NCBI GenBank assembly: GCA_035315965.1
Contig: DATFXJ010000062.1
Coordinates: 5,007-69,006 of the forward strand
Length of the DNA stretch: 64,000 nucleotides
Origin: Pseudolabrys sp.
GTDB taxonomy: Bacteria > Pseudomonadota > Alphaproteobacteria > Rhizobiales > Xanthobacteraceae
Direction of reading: 5' to 3'
Part shown: positions 7,518-58,262 of the stretch, in pieces
How positions within the stretch are numbered: the first letter of the stretch is position 1
How the letters are laid out: every line of letters begins with the position of its first letter
The notes under the pieces: generated by a model
What the model saw: only the letters and a program-made list of their open reading frames with translations
Told to the model about the DNA's origin: nothing
The model's database searches: none
Translations under genes and position numbers: made by a program

Positions 7518-7609
7518 GTCATGGCCGGGGCTTGTCCCGGCCGTCCCGCTCAAGGTGGCAACGCGGTTGCGCCCCTAAGTGAGATGCCCGCGATAAGCGC
7601 GGGCATGAC
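7518..7609. repeat. REP-like palindromic element, family A (CTTGTCCCGG core)
   Basis: GTCATG...CATGAC termini with internal GCCGGGGCTTGTCCCGGC and GCCCGCGATAAGCGCGGGC hairpins; homologous copies at 27309 and 50845. Confidence 0.8.
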
Positions 7610-7618
7610 AAGTGAAAG

Positions 7619-14330: not shown

Positions 14331-15050
14331 TCACGCCGTCGCGGCCACGCGCAACCCGACCAGCCGTTCGAGCGTGGCGCTATCTCTCAACAACTGCGCA
14401 GAAGTTGCGCGGTGCGCCACAGCGCCACGCTCCAACACGATAGCTTCAGCCGTCAGTTCGAGCGCGAAGTCCGTGTGCTGCTCGACAAGGATAATGGCGA
14501 TGCGGCGGTCGGAGAGCATCGTCTTCATCGCGGCAATGAGCTCGTCGACGATTACAGGCGCGAGACCCTCGAATGGCTCATCGAATAGCATCAGTGTCGG
14601 ATTGGTCATCAGTGCGCGCGCGATTGCGAGCATTTGCTGCTCGCCGCCGGAGAGCTGGTTACCCATGTTGCGGCGGCGCTCGGCGAGGCGCGGAAAAAGT
14701 CTGAAAACCGCGTCAAGATCCCAGGAGCCTGGCTGCGCCGCGACCGTGAGATTCTCCTCGACCGACAGCGAGGGAAAGATTTCCCGCTCCTGGGCGACCC
14801 AGCCGATACCTTTGGTCGCGCGGCGGTTCGGAGGCATGCGCGAAATATCCTGACCGTGCCAAGTCACCTGACCACTGCGCAATTGTGTGTAGCCCATGAT
14901 GGTCATCAGCAATGTCGACTTACCGACGCCATTGCGGCCGAGCACTGCCAGGCTGCTGTTCTCTGGCAAGTCGAGCGAAATACCGTGCAGCACGACGGCG
15001 TCGCCATAACCGGCAGTAACGTTGTTGACCTTGAGCAAGGAGTCAGCCAT
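14331..15050 (-). CDS. Branched-chain-type ABC transporter ATPase (LivF-like)
   Basis: Walker A GRNGVGKS, LSGGEQQ signature and Walker B LMLFDEP. Start at ATG 15050. Confidence 0.9.
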   Translation of the reverse strand: MADSLLKVNNVTAGYGDAVVLHGISLDLPENSSLAVLGRNGVGKSTLLMTIMGYTQLRSGQVTWHGQDISRMPPNRRATKGIGWVAQEREIFPSLSVEENLTVAAQPGSWDLDAVFRLFPRLAERRRNMGNQLSGGEQQMLAIARALMTNPTLMLFDEPFEGLAPVIVDELIAAMKTMLSDRRIAIILVEQHTDFALELTAEAIVLERGAVAHRATSAQLLRDSATLERLVGLRVAATA

Positions 15051-15837
15051 GTTTGCGCTTGCCCAGATAGACTTCCCGCACGCCCGGGTCGGCAGCGATC
15101 TCGGCCGGCGAACCTTCCGTAAAGATCGCACCGCCGACCAGCACGATGATGTGGCTTGCGAAGCGAAACACAACGTGCATGTCGTGCTCAATAAACAATA
15201 AGGTGAGATCGTCCGACAGGCTCGCCACAGCCTCGAAGACTTCGCCGCTTTCTTCCTGCGGGACTCCGGCCGCCGGTTCGTCGAGCAGTAGAACTTTCGG
15301 CCCGGTTGCGAGCGCTAGCGCGATTTCCAGCAACCGTTGACGGCCGTAAGGCAATTCGCGCGTAACCTGGTAGCAGGACTCGCCTAGCCGCAATTTGCGT
15401 AGTATCTCGTAAGCCTCGTCGATGGCTTCGCCATGCGAGCCAAGGCCGCGCCAGAACTGCCCGGCGAGCCCGCGCCGTTCGGCCACTGCCAAGGTCACCG
15501 CCTCCAGCGCGTTGAGACCGGCGAACAGTGTGTTGATCTGGAATGTGCGCGCGAGCCCACGCCGCACCCGCTCCTGCGGACCAAGTTCGGTGATGTCCTT
15601 GCCGCCGAGCATAATTTGTCCGGCGTTGGGCGCCAGCATGCCAGTCATCAGGTTGATGAGCGTCGTCTTGCCCGCGCCGTTCGGCCCGATCAGCGCGTAG
15701 CGCGCGCCGACCGGTAGATTGATCTCGATGTTGCGTGCCACCGGCAGCGAACCGAACGCTTTTGACAGGCCGCGGGTAGCTAAAGCGATTGTGCGACTAG
15801 CGATCGCGTTCTCAGCTGGAGGCGTGGGTGTGCTCAT
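15043..15837 (-). CDS. Branched-chain-type ABC transporter ATPase (LivG-like)
   Basis: GPNGAGKT, LPYGRQR, LLDEPAAG and IEHDM motifs. Start at ATG 15837. Confidence 0.9.
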   Translation of the reverse strand: MSTPTPPAENAIASRTIALATRGLSKAFGSLPVARNIEINLPVGARYALIGPNGAGKTTLINLMTGMLAPNAGQIMLGGKDITELGPQERVRRGLARTFQINTLFAGLNALEAVTLAVAERRGLAGQFWRGLGSHGEAIDEAYEILRKLRLGESCYQVTRELPYGRQRLLEIALALATGPKVLLLDEPAAGVPQEESGEVFEAVASLSDDLTLLFIEHDMHVVFRFASHIIVLVGGAIFTEGSPAEIAADPGVREVYLGKRKHG

Positions 15838-16823
15838 TTGCGTCTCCACCGCGCATAGAATTCCGATAGGCCGCCGAGAATGCCGTTGGGGAGCACCATG
15901 ACAACCGTCACCAGGAGCATGCCCATCCAGAAATACCAATATTGCGGGGCGATGCCGGAGAACTGATCACGCGCGATCATGAAAATCGTCGCGCCGACCA
16001 ATCCACCATAAAGCCGCCCGGCACCACCCAGCACCAGCATCACAAGCACGTCAGCTGATCGCTGGAAACTGATCGATTCAAGCGAGACGTTTTCAGTCGT
16101 CTGCGCCAGCAGCGCTCCGGCAAGTCCCGCAATCGTTGCAGCGATGGTGTAAGCCTTGCGGATATGCGCGCGGCTGTCGGCGCCGATCGCCGGCATTCGT
16201 ATCCAGTTCTCCCGGATGCCACGCAGCGCCAGACCAAACGGGGAGTTGATCAGCCGGCGCACGCCCAGGAAAATGACGAACAATGCAGCCAGCGAATAGA
16301 TGTAGGCGACGTAGCCATAGAGATCGAACTTGAACAAACCGAGCACCGGCCACATCGAAATGCCTTGCAATCCGTCGCTGCCGCCGGTGAGCCAATGTGC
16401 GCGGTTTGCCGCCTCGAACGCGAGCAGACCAAGGCCGAGCGTGATCATGATGAGCGTAAAATGTCGGAAGCGCGAAATGACAAAACTGACAGCAAAACCG
16501 ACAAGTCCGGCCGCAACCGACGCCAGCACGAGACCGGTCAGTGGTTCGCCCCAGCCAAATTTGGAGATCAGTCCAGCGGAGTAAGCGCCGATGCCGAAGA
16601 AGGCCGCGTGGCCGAGCGAAACAATACCGGCATAGCCGAGGATGAGGTCAAGAGAGAGCGCGAACAGCGCGGTGATAGCAATCTGGCTTGTAAGCGACAA
16701 ATAGTTCGGGAACAGGAAGAACGGCAGCAGCGTCGAAAGCCAGAACGCAATCTCGAGCGGATGCCAGCGGCTCTGTGCCTGTAGATAGGCCTGCGGTGCC
16801 AACGCTGCGACTGCGGGCGGCAT
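15834..16823 (-). CDS. Branched-chain-type ABC permease (LivM-like)
   Basis: GYAGIVSLGHAAFFGIGAY, SPFGLALRGIREN and VMLVLGG motifs. Confidence 0.9.
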   Translation of the reverse strand: MPPAVAALAPQAYLQAQSRWHPLEIAFWLSTLLPFFLFPNYLSLTSQIAITALFALSLDLILGYAGIVSLGHAAFFGIGAYSAGLISKFGWGEPLTGLVLASVAAGLVGFAVSFVISRFRHFTLIMITLGLGLLAFEAANRAHWLTGGSDGLQGISMWPVLGLFKFDLYGYVAYIYSLAALFVIFLGVRRLINSPFGLALRGIRENWIRMPAIGADSRAHIRKAYTIAATIAGLAGALLAQTTENVSLESISFQRSADVLVMLVLGGAGRLYGGLVGATIFMIARDQFSGIAPQYWYFWMGMLLVTVVMVLPNGILGGLSEFYARWRRK

Positions 16824-19389: not shown

Positions 19390-20262
19390 TCACGCCAGCG
19401 ACAGCGTTGCCCGCTCGTATTGGGCGCTGCCCATTTTCCCTTCCGGGAAAATGCGGTGGGCAGCAATCCACTCGAAGGATTCCTCGTAGATTTCCTTGGT
19501 ATAGGGCTCGAACACCAGCCTTTCTCCAGGACCCCAGCGCCGCGTGTCCATTTTGGCGTGGAAGCGGTCGGGGAATTCCTTCTTGTAATAATGAGTATAG
19601 AGTTCGGGCCGCAGGTCGATGTCACGCTGGGCCTTGCGGAGTGCGCGGAAGAACTTGCGCAGGTCTTCAGGATCGGGATCGCCATGGATCATGGTGCCGA
19701 TCATGAAGGTGGCGTCGATCACCTTGCGGAACCCAAGCTGTTCGGCGAAGTAATAGGGCCCCCCAAAGAGGTGCACGGCCGGCGCCTTGCCCTCGAACAG
19801 CCGCTCCATGCGCGCAAACAGCATGCCGTCGGAATAGACGAGGTTCATCTCCTCCGGCTTCAGGTACTGTTCGAGTGCCTGCACCGTCGAATAATGACTA
19901 CCGGATTGATAGCCGACCGAAACCGGCACGCCAGCCAGATCGGTCGGATCTTTTATCTTCGAATCGCCGGCGACAAAGATACCAGCGGGCGCCACCGAAT
20001 AGACGTCGGTGTACATCTTGCCGTGCCCGTTGGACGCAGCGACGTTGACGGTCCAGTGGCAGGCGCAGCTGACGTTCGATTTGCGACCTTCCTCGAATGA
20101 CTGGTAGGCGCCAACTTTGTCGCCTTTGTCGTGAATCTTGCCGCCGGTCGAGCGCATTAGCTCGCGGAATTCGTATTCAAGGCCTTCCTTGCGGAAGTAG
20201 TCCTTCTCCTCGGCCACCCATTCCTGCAGTCGGAAATGCGGTTCGATCAGGAATTTCGCCAT
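19390..20262 (-). CDS. Class II binding-protein-fold protein (NMT1/SsuA-like) lacking a signal peptide
   Basis: WVAEEKDYFRKEGLEYE and DLAGVPVSVGYQSGSH patterns. An in-frame TAA 18 nt upstream of the ATG excludes an N-terminal extension; AAGGGAG RBS. Confidence 0.75.
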   Translation of the reverse strand: MAKFLIEPHFRLQEWVAEEKDYFRKEGLEYEFRELMRSTGGKIHDKGDKVGAYQSFEEGRKSNVSCACHWTVNVAASNGHGKMYTDVYSVAPAGIFVAGDSKIKDPTDLAGVPVSVGYQSGSHYSTVQALEQYLKPEEMNLVYSDGMLFARMERLFEGKAPAVHLFGGPYYFAEQLGFRKVIDATFMIGTMIHGDPDPEDLRKFFRALRKAQRDIDLRPELYTHYYKKEFPDRFHAKMDTRRWGPGERLVFEPYTKEIYEESFEWIAAHRIFPEGKMGSAQYERATLSLA

Positions 20263-20284
20263 GGTTTTGTTCTCCCTTTAGTTT

Positions 20285-21058
20285 CTAGCAGCATGATTGT
20301 CCTTGGTGCCCGCGTTCGGCCACGCGCCGGGCGCGGATCATCTTGACGTGGTCGTCCATCAGCGCGCGCGCAGCGGCTGCATCACGCATCTCAATCAGGT
20401 CGGTAAGCTGGGTGTGAATGTCCAGGATGTGCCGCGCGAGCTTAGGCGTTGCGGTAACGTTGCGGCGGGGCCAGGAGACGTGCTCAAGCGAGATGAGCTG
20501 CACGACCAGCACTCGGTTGTGCGAAGCTTCGGCGACGGCAAGGTGAAAGTCGCGCGATAGGCGCGTGAACAGGTCGAGGTCGCCGATCACGCCTTCAGCG
20601 TCGCGCAACAGTTGGCGCAATCTGGCGATATCGGTGGCGGTCGCATTCTCGGCCGCGAGTTCTGCGCCAAGGGTCTCGATCGCGCGCTGCGCGTCCATGA
20701 TCTCGGCGGTGGACACGCCGGTAAGGTCGAGCTGGACGGCTAGCGCCTCGGCGAAGAGGCGCGGATTGCCCTGCGCGATACGCGCCCCGCCACCCTTGCC
20801 CATGCGGATTTCGACGATGCCAAGTGCTTCCAGTGTGCGCAATGCATCGCGCGCGACGATCCGGCTGGCGCTGAAGCGTGCCGCGAGGTCCTTCTCGGTG
20901 CCGAGAAAATCACCGGGTTTAAGTTTCTTGGCGAAGAGGGCGTCGCGCACCCAGGTGACGATCTGCGCCGACAGCGAGGCGGAACGGCCAGCAAGCATAA
21001 TTCGGGCGGTGAGGTCACCGTTCATCGTCACCGGCTGCCGCAGTGCCATTCGTGACAT
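20285..21058 (-). CDS. GntR/FadR family transcriptional regulator (FCD domain)
   Basis: wHTH LKPGDFLGTEKDLAARFSASRIVARDAL and FCD motifs DFHLAVAEASHN and DIHTQLTDLI. Confidence 0.92.
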   Translation of the reverse strand: MSRMALRQPVTMNGDLTARIMLAGRSASLSAQIVTWVRDALFAKKLKPGDFLGTEKDLAARFSASRIVARDALRTLEALGIVEIRMGKGGGARIAQGNPRLFAEALAVQLDLTGVSTAEIMDAQRAIETLGAELAAENATATDIARLRQLLRDAEGVIGDLDLFTRLSRDFHLAVAEASHNRVLVVQLISLEHVSWPRRNVTATPKLARHILDIHTQLTDLIEMRDAAAARALMDDHVKMIRARRVAERGHQGQSCC

Positions 21059-27308: not shown

Positions 27309-27396
27309 TTCATCCCCGTGCTTGTCCCGGCGATCCCGCTAAGTTGTGTGCAGTGCCTCCATAAGCGAATCGGCCGGCACAAGGCCGGCCATGATG
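27309..27396. repeat. REP-like palindromic element, family A
   Basis: CTTGTCCCGG core and GGCCGGCACAAGGCCGGCCATGA arm; lies between convergent genes. Confidence 0.75.
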
Positions 27397-47129: not shown

Positions 47130-47885
47130 ATGGGTAACAAAATTGATCTTGGTGCACGCAATGCGGTGGTCACCGGCGGTGCGCAAGGCATCGGGCGTGC
47201 GATCGTTGAGCGCTTTCTGGAGTCTGGCGCGGCAGTTGCGATCTGGGATCGCGACAGCGATTTAGCCAAAAAAACGACGATGCAGTTGCAGAACCTTGGC
47301 CGCATTGCATCCTTCGTCGTTGACGTTACCAATTATTCTGACGTGGAACGCGCGCGCGATGACACGATAAAAACGCTCGGCCGCATCGACATTCTGGTCA
47401 ACAATGCAGGTATTGCGGGGCCGAACATTAAGACCTGGGATTATCCGCTCGACGCCTGGCGTAAAGTGCTTGCGATTAATCTTGACGGACCATTCCATTG
47501 CTGCCGCGCCTTGGCACCGGGGATGATCGCGCAGAATTACGGCCGCATCGTCAACATCGCCTCAATCGCAGGCAAAGAGGGCAATCCAAACGCGCCGGCC
47601 TATTCAGCATCGAAGGCGGGCCTCATCGCGCTGACCAAATCACTTGGCAAAGAGCTTGCATCCCATGACATATCGGTGAATTGCATCACACCTGCCGCTG
47701 CGAAAACGGCAATTTTCGATCAGATGACCCAGGAGCATATCGACTTCATGCTCGCTAAGATTCCGCGGGGGCGCTTTGTCACCGTCGAGGAGATCGCGGC
47801 CCTTGCAGCCTTTTGCGCTTCGGCAGACTGTTCGTTCACCACCGGCGCGGTATTCGATATTTCCGGCGGGCGGGCGACCTATTGA
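47130..47885 (+). CDS. SDR oxidoreductase resembling 2-keto-3-deoxy sugar-acid dehydrogenases (LRA5-like)
   Basis: TGGAQGIG, NNAG, YSASK, GKEGNPNA and DCSFTTG...DISGGRATY, recalled as close to Sphingomonas LRA5. Confidence 0.85.
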   Translation: MGNKIDLGARNAVVTGGAQGIGRAIVERFLESGAAVAIWDRDSDLAKKTTMQLQNLGRIASFVVDVTNYSDVERARDDTIKTLGRIDILVNNAGIAGPNIKTWDYPLDAWRKVLAINLDGPFHCCRALAPGMIAQNYGRIVNIASIAGKEGNPNAPAYSASKAGLIALTKSLGKELASHDISVNCITPAAAKTAIFDQMTQEHIDFMLAKIPRGRFVTVEEIAALAAFCASADCSFTTGAVFDISGGRATY

Positions 47886-48793
47886 GCGATCCCGCACAGC
47901 AGCGTCGCCAGCGGTTGACGGGTATCGCCTTGATGTGCGGCGCGGTGGCGGCGTTTTCTTGTCTCGACGCCACTGGAAAATATTTGCTCCGCTACATGGA
48001 CCCATTGCAGGTCGTTTGGGCTCGTTACTTCGGGGCCTTCCTGTTGGCGCTTATTTTTCTCAATCCGATAACCAAACCGAAGATGATGACAACGTCGCGG
48101 CCATTCATGCAAATTGGCCGATCTACGCTATTGCTTGGTTCCACGGCGCTGAGTTTTTTTGCGCTGCGCTATCTTCAGCTTGACGAAGCGCTAGCAATTC
48201 TTTTCTCGACGCCATTCATTGTTGCCTTGCTTTGCGGTCCGTTGCTTGGCGAATGGGTTGGCTGGCGGCGCTGGACCGCAATCGGCGTCGGTTTCTTTGG
48301 CGTGCTGCTAGTGGCGCGCCCGGGATTTGCCGGCCTTCACCCCGCGGCACTCTTAACGCTGGGCAGTGCCATCTGTTACGCGCTTTACGTGATCTCAACG
48401 CGCGTGCTGGCGCGCACCGACTCGAGTGAAACAACACTGTTTTATTCGAACCTGGTCGGCGCGGTCGCTATGCTGCCGGTCATTTCGTTTGTGTGGACTA
48501 CGCCGGAAAACGCTCTTGCGGTGGCGCTGATGGTGCTTATCGGTGCGCTCGGCAGTGGCGGACATTATCTCCTCATCCTCGGCCACCGATTGGCGCCAGC
48601 GTCGACCCTGGCGCCCTTCATCTACACGCAGATGATCTGGACGACCGCGCTCGGCTTCCTGGTGTTCGGCGACGTGCCCCACTACTGGACCATCGTGGGC
48701 GGTTCAATCGTGATCGTCTCGGGCCTTTATCTGCTCCACCGCGAAACAGTGCGGGGGCCGCACCGGTTGCCTAATCATCGTAGGGGGCGCTAA
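47882..48793 (+). CDS. DMT/EamA family transporter
   Basis: About 10 TM segments with two EamA repeats (LGEWVGWRRW, LVFGDVP). Probable TTG start overlapping the SDR stop. Confidence 0.85.
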   Translation: MSDPAQQRRQRLTGIALMCGAVAAFSCLDATGKYLLRYMDPLQVVWARYFGAFLLALIFLNPITKPKMMTTSRPFMQIGRSTLLLGSTALSFFALRYLQLDEALAILFSTPFIVALLCGPLLGEWVGWRRWTAIGVGFFGVLLVARPGFAGLHPAALLTLGSAICYALYVISTRVLARTDSSETTLFYSNLVGAVAMLPVISFVWTTPENALAVALMVLIGALGSGGHYLLILGHRLAPASTLAPFIYTQMIWTTALGFLVFGDVPHYWTIVGGSIVIVSGLYLLHRETVRGPHRLPNHRRGR

Positions 48794-48836
48794 GTTCCGC
48801 CCGCTAAACAAAGCTTTCCATCGTGAAGGATCATTT

Positions 48837-49871
48837 ATGGCCACAGCAAAGGACCGCGCGCAGGTCAAGGCCGGCTCCGGGCTGAACGACGACATCGGCG
48901 AGCAAAAGCGGCTCGAATTGTACCGGACGCAGGTCGTGATTCGCGAGGCGGAGCAGCGGGCCTACGACCTGTTCCTGCAGAATTTGGTCAAAGGAACCAG
49001 CCATCTTTCGCTTGGGCAGGAAGCGGTCGCGGCAGGTTTTGCTGGCGCAATGAAGCCGGGCGACCTTTCATTCTGCACATATCGTGGCCACGCCCATACT
49101 TTGGCGCGTGGTGTGTCGGTCGAGAAGGTGCTGGGCGAGCTGATGCAGCGCGACAACGGTTTGATGCGCGGCAAGGGCGGCTCGATGCATCTTACCTCTG
49201 TCGACCATGGCGTGATGGGTTCGTACGCCATCATTGGTGCACATCTTCCGATCGCATGTGGTGCTGCCTGGCGCGCGCAGTACAAGGGCGCGAAAGATGT
49301 CTCAGTTTGCTTTTTCGGCGACGGCACCACGAATATTGGGGCCTTTCATGAGGCGCTCAATTTTGCCGCGGTCTGGAAGCTGCCGGTCATCTTTGTCTGC
49401 GAAAACAATATGTACATGGAATACACGCCGATCGGCGAGGTGACGGCGGTGCCGCAGCCGGCCGCCGATCGTGCGTCGGCCTACGGACTGGAACGCATCG
49501 TCATCGATGGCAACGACGCTGACGTCGTGTACCGCGCGGCGCAAACCGCATTCGAAAAGGCCCGCGCAGGGGAAGGACCATCACTGATCGAATGCCTCAC
49601 GTATCGTTACAGCGGACACTCGCGCGCGGATCCGGCGAAGTACCGACCGGAAGGCGAACTTGACCGTTGGAAGTTACGCGATCCGATCAAGATCTACCGT
49701 GAGCGGCTGCTCCAGTTCGGTGTGGCGGATAAGGTAGTCTCCGACATCGATGCGCAGGTGCGAAAAATCGTTGATGACGCAACTGAAGCCTGCAAGGCTG
49801 CGCCACCGCCACCGCTCGATATCATCGCCACAGACGTCTATGCCGATGGAGGCTGGGCATGGCGGAACTGA
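48837..49871 (+). CDS. ThDP-dependent dehydrogenase E1 alpha (acetoin dehydrogenase AcoA-like)
   Basis: GTSHLSLGQEA, TYRGH, GKGGSMH, GDG...ENN and YRYSGHSRAD motifs. Confidence 0.92.
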   Translation: MATAKDRAQVKAGSGLNDDIGEQKRLELYRTQVVIREAEQRAYDLFLQNLVKGTSHLSLGQEAVAAGFAGAMKPGDLSFCTYRGHAHTLARGVSVEKVLGELMQRDNGLMRGKGGSMHLTSVDHGVMGSYAIIGAHLPIACGAAWRAQYKGAKDVSVCFFGDGTTNIGAFHEALNFAAVWKLPVIFVCENNMYMEYTPIGEVTAVPQPAADRASAYGLERIVIDGNDADVVYRAAQTAFEKARAGEGPSLIECLTYRYSGHSRADPAKYRPEGELDRWKLRDPIKIYRERLLQFGVADKVVSDIDAQVRKIVDDATEACKAAPPPPLDIIATDVYADGGWAWRN

Positions 49872-50839
49872 CCTATCGCGACGCGGTCATCCGGGGTATT
49901 GCGCAGGAGATGAGCCGCGATCCGGATGTCGTATTCCTTGGCGAAGACGTGGCCAGAGCCGGTGGGGTTTTCAAAGCGACCGTCGGTTTGTACGAGCAGT
50001 TCGGGCCTTTGCGTGTGCGCGACACTCCGATTTCCGAGCAGGCAATTCTCGGTGCTGCCATGGGTGCGGCGATGACCGGCCTTAAGCCGATTGCCGAAAT
50101 CATGTTCTCCGATTTCTTCGCGGTCTGCTTCGATTACATTGCCAATGAATTTCCTAAGAGCCGTTATATGTCGAATGGTCAGGTCAAGTGCCCGCTGGTT
50201 GTGCGTACGGGTAACGGCGCAGGTTCACGATTCGGCGCGCAGCACAGCCAGAGCGTCGAAAATTGGTGTATGATGATCCCGGGACTAAAGGTGGTCGCGC
50301 CGTCGAACCCGCGCGACGTCATCGGGCTGTTGGCGGCATCGGTGCGCGATCCCGATCCGGTGATTTTCCTTGAGCACAAATCGCTGTACCCGACAAAAGG
50401 CGAAGTTCCCGACGGCGAGATCGTCGACACGCTTGGCACGGCAAAAATCCTGCGTTCCGGCAAAGACGCAACTATCTGCGCATTGGCACTGATGGTGCCG
50501 CGCGCGCTTGAAGCCGCTGAGAAGCTTAAGACGGACCACGGCATTGATTGCGAGATTGTCGATGTGCGTTCGCTGGTGCCGCTGGATACGCGAACCATTC
50601 TCGGCTCGGTGGGGAGGACACACCGGCTATTCACGGTCGAGGAAAATCCACGGCTTTGTGGTTGGGGCGCCGAGATCGTGTCAATCGCGGCGGACGAGGC
50701 CTTCTATGATCTTGACGGCCCGCCAGTCCGCATCACAACGCCGCATATTCCGTTGCCGGCTGCCGATATTCTGGAAGACGTTGTGCTGCCGACACCTGAT
50801 CGCATTACCGAAACCATCCGGCGGAGCTTGGGGAGTTAG
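49859..50839 (+). CDS. ThDP-dependent dehydrogenase E1 beta (AcoB-like)
   Basis: LGEDV, DTPISE, AEIMFSDF, AQHSQ and VDVRSLVPLD motifs. Confidence 0.92.
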   Translation: MAELTYRDAVIRGIAQEMSRDPDVVFLGEDVARAGGVFKATVGLYEQFGPLRVRDTPISEQAILGAAMGAAMTGLKPIAEIMFSDFFAVCFDYIANEFPKSRYMSNGQVKCPLVVRTGNGAGSRFGAQHSQSVENWCMMIPGLKVVAPSNPRDVIGLLAASVRDPDPVIFLEHKSLYPTKGEVPDGEIVDTLGTAKILRSGKDATICALALMVPRALEAAEKLKTDHGIDCEIVDVRSLVPLDTRTILGSVGRTHRLFTVEENPRLCGWGAEIVSIAADEAFYDLDGPPVRITTPHIPLPAADILEDVVLPTPDRITETIRRSLGS

Positions 50840-50844
50840 TTTCT

Positions 50845-50930
50845 GTCGTCATCGGGCTTGTCCCGGTGACCCCGCTTGGGAATGCAGTGCGTCCCCTAAG
50901 CGAGATGGCTAGGACAAGCCCGGCCGCGAC
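50845..50930. repeat. REP-like palindromic element, family A
   Basis: GGGCTTGTCCCGG and GGACAAGCCCGG arms with CCCTAAGCGAGATG, shared with the 7518 copy. Confidence 0.78.
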
Positions 50931-50954
50931 AATCGAGAGTGAGGAAACATAGTT

Positions 50955-52406
50955 ATGTACGAAAATCTTCTCGCCAACGTTCCAACCGACCTATGGATTG
51001 GCGGAAAGTGGTGCAAGGCCTCCGATGGTGGCCGCTTTGACGTCATCGATCCTGCGACGGAACGCAAGATCGCATCGGTTGCCAGCGCGACAGTCGACGA
51101 TGCAAAAGCCGCGCTTGATGCCGCCGAAGGTGCTTTTGAGGGTTGGGCGGGGCGCAAACCGCGCGAGCGCGCTGAGATCCTGCGCAAGGCCTATGAACTG
51201 ATTATGCGCGACGCCGAGCGTTTCGCGAAGCTGATTACACTGGAAAATGGCAAGGCTTTGCAGGATTCACGGAGCGAGGTGGCATATGCCGCCGAGTTCT
51301 TCCGTTGGTACGCCGAGGAAGCTGTGCGCAATATCGGTGAGGTGTCGCGCGCCCCGGCCTCGGGTGCCCGCATCTTCGTATATCACAAGCCCGCCGGCAT
51401 CGCCGTTCTGGTAACGCCTTGGAATTTCCCGGCGGCGATGGCGACGCGAAAGATCGGGCCGGCGCTCGCCGCGGGCTGCCCCGTGGTGCTCAAGCCTGCT
51501 TCCGATACACCGCTCACCATGCTGGCGCTGATGCCGGCGCTGGAAGAAGCCGGCGTCCCTGCCGGTGTCGTCAACGTCATTCCGTCGCGTTCGTCGGGCA
51601 AGGTGGTCAGTGCCATGTTGCACGATCCGCGCGTGCGCGTTGTCTCTTTCACCGGCTCAACCGAAGTCGGGCGCAAGTTGCTGCACGAGGCCGCCGATAA
51701 TATCGTCAAGCCGGCAATGGAGCTCGGCGGGAATGCGCCGTTTATCGTCTTTGAAGACGCCGATATCGACGCCGCGATTGATGGGGCCATGATCGCGAAA
51801 ATGCGCAACATGGGCGAGGCCTGCACGGCCGCCAATCGTTTCTATGTGCATGAGAAAGTCCACGAAGAGTTTGCGAAAAAACTCACCGCCAAAATGAGCT
51901 CGCTGAAGATGGGCAACGGCCTTGATGAAGGCATCAATCTTGGGCCGCTGGTTAACAAAGACGGTCGCGACAAGGTGATCGAATTAGTTGACGACGCCGT
52001 AAAAAAGGGCGCCAAAGTGCTGGCTGGCGGGAAATTGCCAGAGGGCCCAGGGTTTTTCTATCCGGCGACTGTGCTGACCAATGTGCCGGACTCAGCCAAG
52101 ATGCTAAACGAAGAAATCTTCGGACCGGTCGCGTCAATCCAGACCTTCAAGACTGAGGATGAGGCGATCAAGCGTGCCAACGACACCGAGTATGGTCTGG
52201 TTGCTTACCTGTACACGAAGGATTTAACCCGCGGCATGCGTGTTTCCGAGAAACTCGATTTCGGCATGGTCGGCCTCAATCGTGGTCTCGTCTCCGATCC
52301 GGCAGCGCCATTCGGCGGCACCAAGCAGTCCGGCCTCGGTCGCGAAGGGGCGCACGAAGGCATGATGGAGTTTCTTGAGACACAATACGTGTCAGTCTCG
52401 TGGTAA
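50955..52406 (+). CDS. NAD(P)-dependent aldehyde dehydrogenase, succinate-semialdehyde dehydrogenase (GabD)-like
   Basis: TPWNFP, FTGSTEVG, MELGGNAP, GEACTAAN and EEIFGP motifs. Confidence 0.9.
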   Translation: MYENLLANVPTDLWIGGKWCKASDGGRFDVIDPATERKIASVASATVDDAKAALDAAEGAFEGWAGRKPRERAEILRKAYELIMRDAERFAKLITLENGKALQDSRSEVAYAAEFFRWYAEEAVRNIGEVSRAPASGARIFVYHKPAGIAVLVTPWNFPAAMATRKIGPALAAGCPVVLKPASDTPLTMLALMPALEEAGVPAGVVNVIPSRSSGKVVSAMLHDPRVRVVSFTGSTEVGRKLLHEAADNIVKPAMELGGNAPFIVFEDADIDAAIDGAMIAKMRNMGEACTAANRFYVHEKVHEEFAKKLTAKMSSLKMGNGLDEGINLGPLVNKDGRDKVIELVDDAVKKGAKVLAGGKLPEGPGFFYPATVLTNVPDSAKMLNEEIFGPVASIQTFKTEDEAIKRANDTEYGLVAYLYTKDLTRGMRVSEKLDFGMVGLNRGLVSDPAAPFGGTKQSGLGREGAHEGMMEFLETQYVSVSW

Positions 52407-52435
52407 GGCCTGCCGAACAAATTTAGGGGACTCGC

Positions 52436-53731
52436 GTGGATGTTCTGATGCCGCAGCTCGGCGAAACCGTTGCCGAGGGCAAGATCACGAAATGGTTCAA
52501 GGCGACCGGCGATGCTGTGAAGCCAGGCGACTACCTCTTTGAGATCGAGACCGACAAGACTTCGATGGAAGTACCATCGACCACCGCCGGCACACTGACC
52601 GAAATTCGCTTCAATGTCGGCGAGGTGGCGAAGGTCGGCGCCGTGGTGGCGGTGATTTCAGGCGCTGGCGCTGTTGCAAGCCCAGCGGCAAATGCCGCGC
52701 CAAACACTCCTTCATCGAGCATGCCTTTTGCCGCGGCTCCGGTCGTCCATCCCATGCCACGTATTACTCCCATGGATCCTTTTCGCGAAGTGCGGACGCC
52801 CGAGCGTAACTACGGCCCGGCCAAGCTTGCCAGCGGCACAACGGTCACTCCGCTTGCGCGAAGGCTGGCGGGCGAGCGTGGCATTGATCTGAGACGGGTG
52901 ACCGGCTCCGGCCCGCATGGCCGCATTGTCGCGCGCGACATCGAGCAGGCCGCGCCCAGTTCGGCCCCTGCAGCAACTGCAAGCGGCGCCAGCGCAGCCC
53001 AGGTGAAGGCTCTGTACGAGGGGGTCGCTTATGACGAAGTCCCCCTCAATTCAATGCGCCGCACCATCGTCACGCGATTGGTTGAGGCCAAACAAACCAT
53101 TCCACACTTCTATCTGACTGCCGATCTCGACGCCGGCCGTCTGATAGCGATGCGTGAGGAAGCGAATGCTGCCGCGCCGAAAAACAAATATGGCCAACCA
53201 GCGTTCAAACTCTCGCTCAACGATTTCATCATCAAAGCCTGGGCTGCAGCGCTGCAGCGCATTCCGGCCGCCAATGCGGTCTGGGCGGGTGACCGCATTC
53301 TGCAGTTCCGGAATTCCGATATTGGCGTGGCCGTTGCCCTCGAGGGCGGACTCATCACACCAGTTGTGCGCAATGCCGAAACAAAATCGCTGACCGCAAT
53401 TTCAACCGAGATGCGTGATCTGGCAGACCGTGCGCGCCACAAGAAACTCAGGCCGAATGAATACCAGGGTGGCTCGAGCGCCATCTCTAATCTCGGCATG
53501 TACGGGGTGCGCGAGTTTTCGGCCATCATCAATCCGCCGCACGCCACAATTCTCGCCGTCGGCGCGACTCGCCGAGCTCCGATCGAAGCCCAAGACGGTG
53601 GCGCAAAATTTGTCAGCCAAATGACCGTCACTCTGTCGTGCGATCACCGGGTCGTCGACGGTGCGCTGGGAGCTGAATTGTTGGCCGCGTTCAAGAAATT
53701 CGTCGAGGCGCCCGTGACGGCGCTGGTCTAG
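52436..53731 (+). CDS. Dihydrolipoamide acyltransferase E2
   Basis: Lipoyl EIETDK, peripheral-subunit-binding TPLARRLA...GSGPHGRI and catalytic DHRVVDG; GTG start. Confidence 0.92.
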   Translation: MDVLMPQLGETVAEGKITKWFKATGDAVKPGDYLFEIETDKTSMEVPSTTAGTLTEIRFNVGEVAKVGAVVAVISGAGAVASPAANAAPNTPSSSMPFAAAPVVHPMPRITPMDPFREVRTPERNYGPAKLASGTTVTPLARRLAGERGIDLRRVTGSGPHGRIVARDIEQAAPSSAPAATASGASAAQVKALYEGVAYDEVPLNSMRRTIVTRLVEAKQTIPHFYLTADLDAGRLIAMREEANAAAPKNKYGQPAFKLSLNDFIIKAWAAALQRIPAANAVWAGDRILQFRNSDIGVAVALEGGLITPVVRNAETKSLTAISTEMRDLADRARHKKLRPNEYQGGSSAISNLGMYGVREFSAIINPPHATILAVGATRRAPIEAQDGGAKFVSQMTVTLSCDHRVVDGALGAELLAAFKKFVEAPVTALV

Positions 53732-53746
53732 TAAGGAGAATAGGAA

Positions 53747-54724
53747 ATGACTGGCGACAAGCCGGATGTGCTGATGATCGGCGCCAAGAAGCCCGTTATG
53801 ATGAAGGGCTTCGAAGGCAAGGTGACGCTTCACCACTGGCTCGACGCCAAGGACAAGGCCGCCTTCGTCAAGGAGGTTGGCAATGAAATCAAAGCAATCG
53901 CGATTGCCTACACTGCCAACAAGGTCGACGGAAATTTTCTCCGGCAGTTCCCGAACGTCGAGCAGGTCTCGAGTTTTGGCGTAGGTTACGACCATATCGA
54001 TACCAAATGGGCGGGTGAGCACGGTATTGTCGTCACCAACACTCCGGAGGTGCTCAATGAGGAGGTGGCAGATACTGCGCTCGGTCTTCTGCTTTGCACC
54101 GTTCGTGAGCTGCCGCAGTCAGAACGCTATTTGCGCGCCGGCAAGTGGAAGGACGCTCACTACCCGCTAACCAAGGCGACGCTGCGCGATCGCACCGTCG
54201 GAATGGTCGGAATGGGCCGCATCGGCAAGGCAATTGCGCGGCGGCTCGAAGCGTTCGGTATCCCGGTTGTCTATCACAGCCGAAACCCGCAAGCGGGCGT
54301 CAAATACAAGTACTATCCAAAGCTGCTCGACATGGCGCGGGACGTCGACACGCTCATGGTGATCGTGCCGGGAGGCACCAGTACCAGGAACATGATCAAT
54401 GCCGAGGTGCTCAACGCTCTTGGTCCACGCGGCGTGCTGATCAACATGGCGCGCGGCTCTGTTGTCGATGAGCCCGCGCTGATTGAGGCGCTGCAAAAAC
54501 GTACGATCTACTCTGCCGGCCTCGACGTGTTCGCCAATGAGCCCGACGTCCCGAAGGAATTGATCGAGATGGACCACATCGTGCTGTTCCCTCATCTCGG
54601 CTCGTCGACCGAAGCAACCCGAGCAGCGATGGACCAGCTCGTGGTCGACAACATTCTGGCTTGGGCCGCGGGCAAGCCGCCGCTGACGCCGGTTCCAGAA
54701 ACGCCGTGGCCTCCGAAACGTTAG
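53747..54724 (+). CDS. D-isomer 2-hydroxyacid dehydrogenase (glyoxylate/hydroxypyruvate reductase-like)
   Basis: GVGYDHID, GMGRIG, NMARG, DVFANEP and PHLGS motifs. Confidence 0.92.
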   Translation: MTGDKPDVLMIGAKKPVMMKGFEGKVTLHHWLDAKDKAAFVKEVGNEIKAIAIAYTANKVDGNFLRQFPNVEQVSSFGVGYDHIDTKWAGEHGIVVTNTPEVLNEEVADTALGLLLCTVRELPQSERYLRAGKWKDAHYPLTKATLRDRTVGMVGMGRIGKAIARRLEAFGIPVVYHSRNPQAGVKYKYYPKLLDMARDVDTLMVIVPGGTSTRNMINAEVLNALGPRGVLINMARGSVVDEPALIEALQKRTIYSAGLDVFANEPDVPKELIEMDHIVLFPHLGSSTEATRAAMDQLVVDNILAWAAGKPPLTPVPETPWPPKR

Positions 54725-54761: not shown

Positions 54762-55445
54762 ATGACACGTCTTGTGATTGGTCTTGGAGCCTTCTGTTTT
54801 GCCGGTATTGCCTTCGCGCAGCCAGCGGGGCTCGGTGAGTCCGCTCGACGGATGATCGGCAGTTGGGAATTTTCCAATGCGGATCGCGACCGGATATGCA
54901 CCGCCACCTTCAAGAGTGATCCAGGTCCGGGCGGTTTCAAGGTCGAGTTTGACGCCAATTGCGTTAATCTTTTTCCGCTTGTCCGCCAGATCGTAGGCTG
55001 GAAATTTCCGGAAAATGATCTGCTTTATCTGGTCGATGCACGTGGCAGAACAGTTGTGGAATTCAGCGAAGTCGAGGATGGAATCTTCGAGGCGCCGACG
55101 CCCGGCGTCGGCGTGCTGTTTCTGCAAAATGCCGAAGCGGCTGGCGCGCCGCCGAGACCGCCCGAACAGGTCGCCGGTGATTGGGCGATCGTGCGGAAGG
55201 CCGGCCCGCCGATTTGCAGTTTGACACTGGCGATGACCAAGGCCAGTGATGGATTTGCCATCACTGTGAAGCCGGGCTGCGATCCGGTCATTGCCCGGCT
55301 GAATTTCACGCAATGGCGAATCGACCGCGACCAGATCATGTTGGTCCCCTCGCGCGGCAATCCATGGCGCTTCGAGGAAGTCGATAACGCGGTGTGGCGA
55401 CGTGTGCCGGAAAGCGCTGATCAGATCACGCTGGTGCGGCAGTAG
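54762..55445 (+). CDS. AprI/Inh family metalloprotease inhibitor-like protein, two domains
   Basis: Signal peptide and two repeats of G-x-W...C...C...W (GSWEFS, GDWAIV). Confidence 0.75.
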   Translation: MTRLVIGLGAFCFAGIAFAQPAGLGESARRMIGSWEFSNADRDRICTATFKSDPGPGGFKVEFDANCVNLFPLVRQIVGWKFPENDLLYLVDARGRTVVEFSEVEDGIFEAPTPGVGVLFLQNAEAAGAPPRPPEQVAGDWAIVRKAGPPICSLTLAMTKASDGFAITVKPGCDPVIARLNFTQWRIDRDQIMLVPSRGNPWRFEEVDNAVWRRVPESADQITLVRQ

Positions 55446-55935: not shown

Positions 55936-56760
55936 CTAGCGCTTATACGGCGGCTTGTGCAGTCCAGCCGGAGAGAAGGTAAACACCTCGACGCCGTCAT
56001 TGGTGACACCAACGGTGTGCTCGAACTGCGCTGATAACGAACGATCGCGTGTAACCGCCGTCCATCCGTCAGACAACACCTTCACGTGCGGGCGGCCCAG
56101 ATTGATCATCGGCTCCACTGTGAAAAACATTCCCGGTTTTAGAACGATTCCTTCTCCGGGCCGTCCGACGTGCACAACATTCGGCTCATCGTGGAACAGC
56201 CGGCCGAGTCCGTGGCCGCAGAAGTCACGGACCACGCTCATATGCTGCGCTTCGACATAAGTCTGGATTGCGTGACCGATGTCGCCGCTTGTTGCTCCTG
56301 GCCGGATCGCGGCAATGCCGCGCATCATCGCCTCATGTGTAACGTCGATCAGACGCTCGGCGCGACGTGGAATTTCGCCGATCGTAAACATGCGGCTGGA
56401 ATCGCCGTGCCAACCGTCGAGGATGAGCGTCACGTCAATATTGACGATATCTCCATCTTTCAATGGTTTGTCGCCGGGAATTCCGTGACACACGACGTGA
56501 TTGAGCGACGTGCAAGTGGATTTCTTGTAGCCGCGGTACATCAGCGTGGCGGGCAGGGCACGGTGATCCATGGCATAGTCGAATACCAGCCGGTCGATCT
56601 TTTCAGTCAGCATTCCCGGACCGACATTCATCGCCAGCATGTCCAGACACCGTGCAACAAGCTGACCGGCCTTGCGCATGGCTTCAAAGGCGGCGGGGCC
56701 ATGAATCTTGATCTGACCGGTTTTTCGCAGTGGAGCGACAGCGGCGTCGACGTAAGTCAT
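55936..56760 (-). CDS. map: Type I methionine aminopeptidase
   Basis: CHGIP, DVT...DSS, GHGLG, EPMIN and QFEHT metal-ligand motifs. Confidence 0.95.
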   Translation of the reverse strand: MTYVDAAVAPLRKTGQIKIHGPAAFEAMRKAGQLVARCLDMLAMNVGPGMLTEKIDRLVFDYAMDHRALPATLMYRGYKKSTCTSLNHVVCHGIPGDKPLKDGDIVNIDVTLILDGWHGDSSRMFTIGEIPRRAERLIDVTHEAMMRGIAAIRPGATSGDIGHAIQTYVEAQHMSVVRDFCGHGLGRLFHDEPNVVHVGRPGEGIVLKPGMFFTVEPMINLGRPHVKVLSDGWTAVTRDRSLSAQFEHTVGVTNDGVEVFTFSPAGLHKPPYKR

Positions 56761-56820
56761 AGAGTCAATGTAAGGTTTGCAGCATTTGATGCAAGCATGC
56801 GTGGCGAGTATCGAACAACG

Positions 56821-57798
56821 TCAATTCGCAATCTTTCCCTCTAATTCATCCTCGATGTGAGCAAGGATAATGTCGTCGAAGCTGGCCTCGGCTTTAAATC
56901 CAAGATTGCGCGCGCGTTTCGCATCGAGCTGCTCGGCCCAGCCGGCAACGATTCGCTGGACAAGCTCGTCCGGTGCCCGACGGATGCGTGCGGCTACCTT
57001 GTTGCCGGCGACACGGCGCAGCGCTTCAATTTGTTCTCCCACCGTGCACGATATGCCGGGCATGGAAAGGTTGATGCGCGTTCCGAGCTGTTGGCGTGTC
57101 AGCCCCGCCGCATGAACAAGAAATCCGACCGCGGCACGCGGGCTTGCATGAGTGTGCCGCACAGTATCGGCGACCGGTAGCAGCGCTTCCTGGCCCGCCA
57201 AAGGTTCTCGAATGATGCTTGAGAAAAAGCCGGAGGCCGCCTTGTTTGGCTTGCCGGGGCGCACGCAAATAGTCGGCAGCCTGATGCCGACGCCGTCGAG
57301 AAATCCACGCCGCGTATAGTCAGCGAGCAATAATTCGCAAATGGCCTTTTGCGTCCCGTACGAAGTAAGGGGCGTGAGATGAAAGTCATCGGGAATGGAA
57401 GGGGGAAACGGCGTGCCGAATACGGCTATTGAAGAAGTAAACACGACCTTCGGTTTGAAGTCCGCAGTGCGGATCGCCTCAAATAGGGTGCGAGTTCCGT
57501 CAAGATTGACGCGGTAGCCCTTCTCGAAATCAGTTTCCGCCTCGCCCGAAACCACACCTGCCAGGTGGAAGATCACCTCCGGCCTGTCTGCGACAGCCTT
57601 AGCTGCGGCGCCTGGGCTGGAAAGATCGCTTGGCGAGAAGTCGACCGTTCCCGCAAAACCGGCCGGCTTTTCCGGAGCGATGACGTCAATCAGTGTCAGT
57701 CGATCAATCTTATGTCCGTTTAAGTGACCATCCTTGACCAGCCTTGCACTAAGCTTGCGGCCGATCATGCCTGCGGCCCCGGTGACAAGAATATGCAT
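56821..57798 (-). CDS. denD: NAD-dependent epimerase/dehydratase family, D-erythronate dehydrogenase-like
   Basis: TGAAGMIG, HLAGVVSGEAETDF, YGTQK and VRPGKPNKAASGF motifs recalled from DenD. Confidence 0.72.
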   Translation of the reverse strand: MHILVTGAAGMIGRKLSARLVKDGHLNGHKIDRLTLIDVIAPEKPAGFAGTVDFSPSDLSSPGAAAKAVADRPEVIFHLAGVVSGEAETDFEKGYRVNLDGTRTLFEAIRTADFKPKVVFTSSIAVFGTPFPPSIPDDFHLTPLTSYGTQKAICELLLADYTRRGFLDGVGIRLPTICVRPGKPNKAASGFFSSIIREPLAGQEALLPVADTVRHTHASPRAAVGFLVHAAGLTRQQLGTRINLSMPGISCTVGEQIEALRRVAGNKVAARIRRAPDELVQRIVAGWAEQLDAKRARNLGFKAEASFDDIILAHIEDELEGKIAN

Positions 57799-58262
57799 CA
57801 CGCCCTCACTTTTTCGCGATTCGCCGGCTCGTAACGATCCATACGGCGCAGATCAGGGAATAGCATCATCTAGACGGCTACCACCAGCAGCCAGCCTAGT
57901 CCGCCAATCACCACGGAAAATATCGCACCAAGCCAGGCGGCGACCAAGCCAGATTCGAATTCGCCCAGCGTGTTCGAAGAGCCCACAAACAGGTAGTTGA
58001 TAGCGCTTACGCGGCCGCGTTTTTCATTCGGTGTTTCGATCTGTATCAGCGAAAAGCAGATGACGATGCTCACAGCGTCAGAAGCGCCAAGTATGGCGAG
58101 CGCCAGTAACGAGAGCGGAAACGATGTCGACAACCCGAACACGATTGTCGTCACGCCAAAGATTCCAACCGCCGCGAGCATTTTGTGACCGATATGCCGT
58201 TCGACCAGCGCAAAGGGCTGCTGTTGCACGAGGCCGGCCGAAGACACAGTGGCAGCATTCAT
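57798..58262 (-). pseudogene. MFS transporter (MFS_3-like) with in-frame internal deletion and nonsense codon
   Basis: MNAATVSSAGLVQQQPFAL fused to late TMs (VERHIGHK...RGRVSAIN...SNTLGEFESG). TAG at 57870-57872 interrupts VAV*MMLFPDLRR...; the following TGA overlaps the denD ATG. Confidence 0.78.

Follow-up and report, generated by a model that had tools for sequence, protein, structure and literature searches.

Why should the gene for an aldehyde dehydrogenase (ALDH) lie between those for the E1 and E2 subunits of a lipoate-dependent dehydrogenase complex, and what reaction might such an arrangement carry out? The question is raised by a 64,000-nt stretch of Pseudolabrys sp. contig DATFXJ010000062.1 (hereafter the window; contig C62 of a 3.0-Mb, 220-contig assembly that is 90% complete, with an estimated contamination of 1.1%), in which an open reading frame (ORF) listing and profile searches reveal eight co-oriented features at positions 47130–54724 on the + strand. 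An earlier note on this DNA, made from its letters alone, had described the group as an acetoin-dehydrogenase-like complex without a lipoamide dehydrogenase (E3), and had listed a short-chain dehydrogenase/reductase (SDR), a DMT transporter, E1alpha, E1beta, a repetitive extragenic palindromic (REP) element, a GabD-like ALDH, E2 and a 2-hydroxyacid dehydrogenase; all of these are present on the + strand where the note had placed them. As we describe below, comparison with related genomes indicates that the window holds the lipoate-dependent core that is one half of a split, conserved catabolic module, and that this copy is a rearranged and partly dispersed member of that module.

A lipoate-dependent core with an embedded aldehyde dehydrogenase

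The core opens with the thiamine diphosphate (ThDP)-binding E1alpha subunit of a heterotetrameric E1 (48837–49871, + strand; PF00676, 263 bits), the gene for which overlaps by 13 nt that for E1beta (49859–50839, + strand; PF02779 and PF02780), a protein that passes NF006667 (348 bits, cut-off 321). Next on the same strand is a succinate-semialdehyde dehydrogenase (SSADH)-like, NAD(P)-dependent ALDH (50955–52406; PF00171, 550 bits), placed between E1 and the E2 dihydrolipoyl acyltransferase (52436–53731, + strand), which carries lipoyl (PF00364), E3/E1-binding (PF02817) and catalytic core (PF00198) domains. Among the curated models searched, none is passed by E1alpha, E2, the ALDH or two partner proteins discussed below (an M24 enzyme and a beta-hydroxyacid dehydrogenase). 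A full-text literature search for the module likewise returned no description of it, and we found no curated family that assigns it a function.

An E1 lineage apart from housekeeping pyruvate dehydrogenase

That the E1 might be a standard pyruvate dehydrogenase (PDH), the outcome that the earlier note had set against its own proposal, is not what we observe. E1alpha shares 38% identity with the PDH E1alpha encoded elsewhere in the genome (contig C152), scores 332.3 bits on the PDH equivalog TIGR03182 (cut-off 393.85), and belongs to a tight orthologue group of its own, which we call type 1, with 72–96% identity among its members and no more than 48% to the next relatives. E1beta, which lacks an N-terminal lipoyl domain, is 45% identical to the housekeeping E1beta and 73–97% identical across orthologous loci. 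These identities, the hidden Markov model (HMM) cut-offs and the fact that the genome has two further PDH systems rule out both the housekeeping PDH and a recent duplicate of it. The E1 phylogeny proposed in the earlier note bears out the separation, if with weak support (SH-aLRT 85): in a quick tree, type-1 E1 and a second set (type 2, described below) form one clade apart from housekeeping PDH, and the two lineages likely have a common origin.

The same note had called the E1 AcoAB-type, a label that is not demonstrable from sequence. Close homologues of E1alpha are named in public sources either as pyruvate dehydrogenase or as acetoin:DCPIP oxidoreductase alpha subunit, and no curated AcoA or AcoB model appears among the NCBIfam matches; E2, for its part, reaches 91.3 bits on the AcoC model NF011457 (cut-off 307), over the lipoyl and binding region only.

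Orthologues of E1alpha (72–85% identity) occur in 21 genomes of an even sample of 300 from the Rhizobiales (7%), and in none of 400 genomes sampled across the Pseudomonadota. A scan of one genome per species with E1alpha matched at least 599 stretches, at least 567 of which encode a relative; the close relatives referred to below are the best 80 of these (87–96% identity), nearly all from Pseudolabrys-type or unclassified alphaproteobacterial metagenome-assembled genomes. When E1alpha was searched against metagenomes, all 8000 scored candidates were significant, with the best 120 at 85–96% identity. A search of 1.8 billion cluster representatives yielded just a handful of full-length proteins at 50–61% identity to E1, all of them metagenomic.

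Conservation of the module across two E1 lineages

To look past the Pseudolabrys clade, we fetched 18 distant type-1 orthologous loci, whose E1alpha and E1beta are 72–91% identical to those of the window. An ALDH (69–77% identical) stands between E1beta and E2 in 7 of the 18, and in most of them a creatinase/DddP-like M24 enzyme of about 435 aa adjoins E1 or E2; many have a beta-hydroxyacid dehydrogenase after E2, often together with a glutathione S-transferase (GST) with a maleylacetoacetate-isomerase-like N-terminus. The remaining neighbours vary with lineage and include LacI regulators, CUT2 sugar ABC systems, GFO/IDH/MocA proteins, zinc alcohol dehydrogenases, SDRs and CobW proteins, and, in streamlined genomes of 1.3–1.4 Mb, an acetolactate synthase-like ThDP enzyme, a cyclase, an alpha/beta hydrolase, another 2-hydroxyacid dehydrogenase and an MFS transporter.

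These partners are not lost from the genome under study. A tblastn search of the whole genome places an M24 enzyme (73% identical), a beta-hydroxyacid dehydrogenase (59%) and a GST (63%) side by side on contig C59, adjoining a NitT/TauT-type ABC system and a TctC receptor, and all five module components (M24 enzyme, E1alpha/E1beta, ALDH, E2 and beta-hydroxyacid dehydrogenase) are present in one genome, distributed over the window and C59. The M24 enzyme also occurs in 5 of 5 other genomes of the Pseudolabrys clade (79–95% identity), in 3 of which it lies on the same contig as the E1 cluster at a distance of 14–21 kb, an arrangement that looks like the progressive separation of a once contiguous unit. 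Neighbourhood conservation, which the earlier note had offered as a check on its reading, therefore gives a divided answer: the ALDH stays with E1 and E2, the SDR of the window does not, and the conserved M24 enzyme, beta-hydroxyacid dehydrogenase and GST on C59 had gone unseen by the note.

The M24 enzyme leads in turn to the second E1 lineage. It is found in 34 of the 300 Rhizobiales genomes, including all 21 that are positive for E1, and in each of 11 other M24 loci that we fetched it is directly followed by a different E1alpha/E1beta pair (type 2), 40–44% and 42–47% identical, respectively, to the pair in the window and 75–83% identical among themselves. The gene order in type-2 islands is M24, E1alpha, E1beta, lipoyl protein, ALDH, E2 core and, in many, E3, often with an SDR upstream and in many cases with a second SDR and a GST. 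Here E2 is split into a protein with only a lipoyl domain and another with only the catalytic core, and the ALDH gene (its product 68–70% identical to the window ALDH) lies between the two halves (for example, at L126:12485–13555 and 15009–15881, and at L145:17328–18623 and 20080–20958).

Beyond the Rhizobiales sample, type-2 islands turn up in another alphaproteobacterial family (4 of 19 genomes) and in a single genome from a different class, and they are carried by annotated plasmids of Phaeobacter inhibens, P. gallaeciensis, P. piscinae, Tritonibacter mobilis, Marinovum algicola and Pacificitalea. Plasmid pGal_E78 (P. gallaeciensis DSM 26640) has it as a discrete island flanked by plasmid genes; one arm holds ThuA, an oxidoreductase, a sugar ABC system and an SDR, and the divergent second arm holds a binding protein, an SDR, the M24 enzyme, E1alpha, E1beta, the lipoyl protein, a gene annotated as "NAD-dependent succinate-semialdehyde dehydrogenase", E2 and LpdA. 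Further afield, a Streptomyces plasmid carries LacI, a binding protein, a beta-hydroxyacid-dehydrogenase-like oxidoreductase, the M24 enzyme (63%), an ALDH, a fused E1alpha/beta and an E2 core (its annotation includes no lipoyl-protein or E3 gene), and a Rhodococcus plasmid has the order ALDH, E1alpha, E1beta, with an E1alpha 57% identical to that of the window.

The conservation of the ALDH with E1 that the earlier proposal called for is thus borne out in both E1 lineages and in several orders belonging to two phyla, with 68–77% identity across the two lineages; the presence of the ALDH beside E1 and E2 in both identifies it as a fixed feature of the module and no local oddity. By gene content, the full module found elsewhere is composed of the M24 enzyme, E1alpha/E1beta, E2 (whole or split), the SSADH-like ALDH and a beta-hydroxyacid dehydrogenase resembling gamma-hydroxybutyrate dehydrogenases, to which a GST, one or two SDRs and an E3 are often added, usually along with a sugar-type ABC importer and a LacI regulator.

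Active-site residues and partner proteins

What the ALDH might act upon can be read in part from its active site. Its best family is SSADH TIGR01780, at 570.8 bits against a cut-off of 646.35, and it likewise falls short of NF008415 (526.8 bits, cut-off 828) and, by far, of the acetaldehyde-dehydrogenase-type ExaC model (321 bits, cut-off 900). The best solved relative is E. coli GabD (3jz4; 491 bits, with end-to-end alignment), next to 8c54 at 444 bits. Alignment to 2w8n and 3jz4 reveals that the catalytic Cys and Glu and both of the arginines that bind the substrate carboxylate (human R213 and R334) are kept, as they are in GabD and in the GabD-like sulfolactaldehyde dehydrogenases. The third carboxylate contact (human S498) is an Asp, within the signature GLVSDPAAPFGG that replaces the GIISNEVAPFGG of the GabD type; catalytic residues, arginine pair and signature are essentially invariant in 26 orthologues. 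Unlike GabD, the ALDH of the module never adjoins gabT. Given the conserved arginine pair, the probable substrate is a short aldehyde that bears an acidic group and resembles succinate semialdehyde without being identical with it.

The partner proteins can be read in a similar way. The closest solved relatives of the beta-hydroxyacid dehydrogenase are gamma-hydroxybutyrate dehydrogenases from Geobacter and a plant glyoxylate/succinic-semialdehyde reductase, and this enzyme probably handles the same kind of semialdehyde as the ALDH. The SDRs that stand beside the M24 enzyme and E1 in type-2 islands resemble acetoin reductase and L-iditol 2-dehydrogenase, and a second SDR in one island comes close to being a KduD. 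Enzymes of these three kinds turn vicinal diols into alpha-hydroxyketones or diketo acids. The surroundings of the distant loci are carbohydrate- or polyol-like, with LacI, CUT2 sugar ABC systems, RbsB-like binding proteins, GFO/IDH/MocA proteins and ThuA.

The M24 enzyme itself has the two-domain architecture of creatinase and prolidase and aligns over its full length only to DddP-type structures (4s01 and 4b28). It shares with DddP, creatinase and ectoine hydrolase this non-peptidase architecture, and it retains all but one of the five Pyrococcus prolidase metal ligands; it differs from DddP in scoring far below the model cut-off (about 70–112 bits against 600) and in having a Cys in place of the second Asp ligand. 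The motif GYRTCYYRT, with its invariant Cys, is present in 43 of 43 M24 orthologues (that on C59, at L123:8669–9970 on the − strand, and 42 others in L094–L152), and the ESM Atlas offers no assignment finer than "M24 family". A gene for a CobW-type GTPase/metallochaperone adjoins the M24 gene in some loci. The metal site of the M24 enzyme may be an unusual one.

Some features recall organosulfonate metabolism, namely the likeness of the ALDH to GabD-like sulfolactaldehyde dehydrogenases and of the reductase to YihU, and the NitT/TauT ABC systems, TauE/SafE proteins and LLM oxidoreductase with flavin reductase seen in certain loci. An organosulfonate pathway was set aside as a candidate: the hints are scattered over single loci, and with no Xsc, SuyAB or CuyA equivalog among the matches this reading stays speculation.

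E2 and the source of E3

E2 carries both the lipoyl-lysine motif ETDKT and the catalytic motif DHRVVDG, and with its lipoyl, binding and catalytic domains all present it scores 436.6 bits on TIGR01349 (cut-off 445). It is 48% identical to the housekeeping PDH E2, 57% to the E2 of the nearest locus, and 27–37% to those of the distant type-1 loci, and may be a recruited paralogue of the PDH E2. The additional segment before the binding domain to which the earlier note had drawn attention, PMDPFREVRTPERNYG (residues 112–127; window 52769–52816), is indeed there, in the linker just ahead of the subunit-binding domain. It follows the motif P(M/L)DPFxEVxTPExN(Y/F)GP, which is shared by the clade's orthologous E2s and the nearest outgroup but not by the housekeeping PDH E2 or any other locus that we fetched; a docking role for it is possible.

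No TIGR01350 hit to a lipoamide dehydrogenase was found on contig C62, in agreement with the earlier note. As a property of the system, however, the missing E3 is not borne out: many relatives encode an E3 of their own, so its absence here is a local loss. The genome's three Lpd genes lie with an alpha/beta-type PDH (C152), with the 2-oxoglutarate dehydrogenase (OGDH; C107) and with an AceE-type PDH (C81). An orphan E3 dedicated to the cluster is ruled out, as the third Lpd follows an 888-aa AceE-type E1 and its E2 on C81 (L124). To judge from the domains of E2, E3 must be borrowed from the PDH or OGDH complex through the intact E3-binding domain. We note in passing that the assembly has two PDH-type systems (C152 and C81), which are either genuinely redundant or a sign of contamination in the bin (estimated at 1.1%).

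Neighbours of the core

The 251-aa SDR (47130–47885, + strand; Pfam adh_short/adh_short_C2, with a GGAGG ahead of its ATG) has its best NCBIfam matches in the FabG and glucose 1-dehydrogenase subfamilies, passes no equivalog, and reaches 182 bits on the butanediol dehydrogenase (BudC) model (cut-off 270). The LRA5-type assignment of the earlier note thus finds no specific match, the nearest analogue being the KduD-like SDR of a single type-2 island (321 bits, cut-off 339), and the conservation of the SDR with E1 that the note's proposal called for does not hold, the synteny table placing the SDR in about 43 of the 80 close-relative loci. Overlapping the 3′ end of the SDR gene is an EamA/DMT-family membrane transporter (about 47813–48793, + strand, start codon uncertain; two stretches of PF00892 EamA), of which no paralogue was found elsewhere in the genome. 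On the far side of E2 lies a D-isomer-specific, glyoxylate/hydroxypyruvate-reductase-like 2-hydroxyacid dehydrogenase (53747–54724, + strand; PF02826 and PF00389), with glyoxylate reductase as its best NCBIfam match (217 bits, cut-off 455, not passed).

Of the close-relative loci that extend far enough 5′, nearly all have the transporter directly ahead of E1alpha; the 2-hydroxyacid dehydrogenase follows E2 in nearly all loci that are long enough, and the entire order from the transporter through E1alpha, E1beta, ALDH and E2 to the 2-hydroxyacid dehydrogenase is kept in nearly all loci long enough to show it. We nevertheless discarded synteny within the Pseudolabrys clade as evidence of linkage, because unrelated flanking genes (chrA, an ABC system, an Inh-family gene, map and denD) are equally syntenic and the clade is therefore uninformative on function. 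No orthologue of the SDR, transporter or 2-hydroxyacid dehydrogenase of the window was found in the 18 distant type-1 loci, and by this comparison all three are lineage-specific accessories.

The gene denD (D-erythronate dehydrogenase; 56821–57801, − strand), which lies outside the cluster and had been taken in the earlier note as a hint of small sugar acids, is real, with 378.5 bits on NF043036 (cut-off 325). As a pointer to the pathway it fares less well, for beyond the clade it is not linked to the module. A search of the 90%-complete genome for a DUF1537 four-carbon acid-sugar kinase (PF07005) found none, so that DenD may feed a different route here; we dropped it as a pathway partner and retain it as a hint only. 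Within the same stretch (55936–57801, − strand), 60 nt on from denD, is a 274-aa M24 gene resembling methionine aminopeptidase. Separately, 37 nt past the 2-hydroxyacid dehydrogenase and on its strand, a 227-aa protein with two Inh (protease-inhibitor) repeats is encoded at 54762–55445; its gene is syntenic in nearly all close relatives, and a link to the pathway is not evident.

The 115-nt gap between E1beta and the ALDH is largely taken up by a long hairpin (50840–50940, no strand assigned; −55.2 kcal/mol, z = −5.2). With 14 matches in the genome at 71–100% identity, including itself and its own reverse-strand match, it is REP-like, and the name given to it in the earlier note is a fair one. 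Diverged copies (71–75% identity) occur in the window at 7528–7619 and 27317–27390. In one close relative, the site of the hairpin between E1beta and the ALDH is occupied by a 307-aa metallo-beta-lactamase (MBL)-fold ORF with a signal peptide and an HFHPEHD motif (L018:12007–12930), and similarly wide gaps in L026, L071, L078, L083, L087 and L089 suggest the same insertion; L018 is the one that was read.

Candidate reactions for the module

Gene identity, conservation and active-site residues are established for this locus, and from them we infer a reaction. The one that we tentatively favour, while stopping a little short of calling it probable, is an oxidative cleavage of the acetoin-dehydrogenase kind, acting on a carbonyl compound derived from a sugar, polyol or sugar acid and delivering an acidic semialdehyde to the ALDH. 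An SDR or 2-hydroxyacid dehydrogenase would make the carbonyl compound (a hydroxyketone) from its sugar-, polyol- or sugar-acid-type precursor, and the ThDP-dependent E1 would split it as acetoin dehydrogenase splits acetoin. The acyl half would pass to lipoyl-E2 and on to CoA, E2 recruiting a borrowed E3 by way of its intact binding domain, and the other half would leave as a short aldehyde bearing an acidic group, which the embedded ALDH would oxidise to a dicarboxylate or which, in relatives, the beta-hydroxyacid dehydrogenase may reduce instead. Purely as an illustration that would fit all of these parts, a 5-keto-aldonate could yield glycolyl-CoA and tartrate semialdehyde. The route resembles the one sketched in the earlier note, from SDR through E1 to ALDH, and the arginine pair of the ALDH, the carbohydrate-like contexts and the ketol-type SDRs of relatives all suit it, while the particular SDR on which that sketch relied is not conserved.

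Several observations weigh against this proposal. At the sequence level hydroxyketone cleavage and ordinary 2-oxoacid decarboxylation look alike, and by HMM the E1 is nearest to PDH E1, with no curated AcoA model available for comparison. The M24 enzyme and the GST have no place in the scheme, the SDR of the window is dispensable in about half of the clade, some contexts (NitT/TauT ABC systems, TauE/SafE, flavin reductase with LLM oxidoreductase) look organosulfonate-like, and the co-occurrence counts, being drawn from related genomes, lack independence. Moreover, two non-orthologous kinds of 2-hydroxyacid dehydrogenase turn up repeatedly near the module, and a 2-oxoacid intermediate would suit them at least as well.

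This last point leads to the possibility of a true 2-oxoacid dehydrogenase complex, in which the 2-hydroxyacid dehydrogenase or DenD would make a 2-oxoacid, E1 and E2 with a borrowed E3 would convert it to an acyl-CoA and CO2, and the ALDH and beta-hydroxyacid dehydrogenase would act before or after, taking a terminal CH2OH through the semialdehyde to the carboxylate. We regard it as somewhat unlikely, though it accounts for a good deal. E1alpha, E1beta and E2 all score best on the alphaproteobacterial/mitochondrial-type PDH models (TIGR03182, NF006667 and TIGR01349), E2 has the same domain order as that PDH, is only 8 bits under its equivalog cut-off and is, as noted above, 48% identical to the housekeeping protein; throughout the clade the gene after E2 encodes a 2-hydroxyacid dehydrogenase, and marine type-1 loci have one of a different kind; enzymes like gamma-hydroxybutyrate dehydrogenase and SSADH make up a classical alcohol-to-aldehyde-to-acid pair; and DenD, which makes 2-oxo-tetronate, is encoded 2 kb away in a genome where its usual downstream kinase was not found. 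Yet a plain decarboxylating complex provides no obvious reason for an ALDH fixed between E1 and E2, or between lipoyl carrier and E2 core, and the window cluster departs from PDH also in having E1alpha and E2 below the equivalog cut-offs, an E1beta without a lipoyl domain, no E3 gene and a patchy distribution. The 2-hydroxyacid dehydrogenases are, besides, non-orthologous between lineages and absent from most type-2 islands, the SDRs adjoining M24 and E1 resemble diol and ketol dehydrogenases, and DenD is unlinked to the module outside the clade.

The position of the ALDH would also suit a product with two reactive ends. E1 might attack a cyclic alpha-hydroxyketone or 1,2-dione formed from a cyclitol or hydroxyquinol-type compound, leaving an opened chain that ends in a thioester on one side and, on the other, in an aldehyde for the ALDH to oxidise, with the GST and M24 enzyme processing the unsaturated product. 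A precedent is BqdLMS, the hydroxybenzoquinone dehydrogenase in the anaerobic resorcinol pathway of Aromatoleum anaerobium, which is reported to cleave the ring of hydroxybenzoquinone (PMC10084136) and, being said to be PDH-like, would be a pathway-specific complex that breaks a C–C bond of a non-2-oxoacid substrate within a catabolic cluster. An ALDH held inside the E1/E2 unit, even between lipoyl carrier and E2 core, the maiA-like N-terminal domain of the GST, and loci with inositol-dehydrogenase-like GFO/IDH/MocA proteins, a cyclase or an alpha/beta hydrolase are all in keeping with ring opening. We nonetheless think it improbable, as the comparison with BqdLMS is one of description, the hosts here are aerobic alphaproteobacteria from soil and the sea that have sugar-type importers, the neighbourhood encodes no enzyme of resorcinol or hydroxyhydroquinone metabolism, not every island has the GST, and the SSADH-type arginine pair of the ALDH suggests a small, free acidic aldehyde, not one tethered to CoA or lipoate.

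Least likely, and in our estimation very improbable, is the most conventional account, an ordinary acetoin dehydrogenase or second PDH accompanied by its own acetaldehyde dehydrogenase and a butanediol-dehydrogenase-like SDR. The AcoA/AcoB/AcoC/AcoL system does share with the module a heterotetrameric ThDP-dependent E1alpha/E1beta and a lipoyl E2, its E3 is sometimes encoded apart, diol-dehydrogenase-type SDRs are associated with it, and the acetaldehyde that it releases from acetoin requires an ALDH; some public annotations name close homologues of E1alpha accordingly, and the SDR of the window has its weak similarity to butanediol dehydrogenase. Against this, that SDR falls below the BudC cut-off and is missing in about half of the clade, E2 is not AcoC-type (91 bits where 307 are needed), the window cluster has no regulator, acoR included, and no acoX, and the genome already holds two PDH systems. 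The ALDH, moreover, is of the SSADH type (571 bits, against 321 on the ExaC model with its cut-off of 900) and keeps its carboxylate-binding arginines, and the constant partners of the module, namely the M24 enzyme, the beta-hydroxyacid dehydrogenase, the GST and the sugar-type importers, are foreign to aco operons.

Implications

Lipoate-dependent E1/E2 complexes are usually annotated by default as pyruvate or acetoin dehydrogenases, and we hold the complex in the window to be neither. The module to which it belongs is conserved at 65–80% identity across orders, two phyla and conjugative plasmids, and the thousands of near-identical E1 matches in soil metagenomes suggest that the substrate is probably a common carbon compound of plant, algal or microbial origin. 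It is a larger claim, and one that we consider somewhat unlikely, that the whole set makes up a complete, mobile and so far undescribed pathway combining an oxygen-free oxidative splitting of a hydroxyketone derived from a sugar or cyclitol, or a ring opening, with a new, non-peptidase reaction of the Cys-substituted M24 enzyme. Such a pathway would send one half of its substrate to an acyl-CoA and the other to an acidic semialdehyde, and it would span soil Rhizobiales, marine roseobacter plasmids and Streptomyces. Cultured carriers exist in Phaeobacter, Tritonibacter and Marinovum, and working out what the module does would add a pathway to the carbon cycle, give PDH-like complexes a new reaction type in which an ALDH is built in, and assign the M24 fold a further activity.

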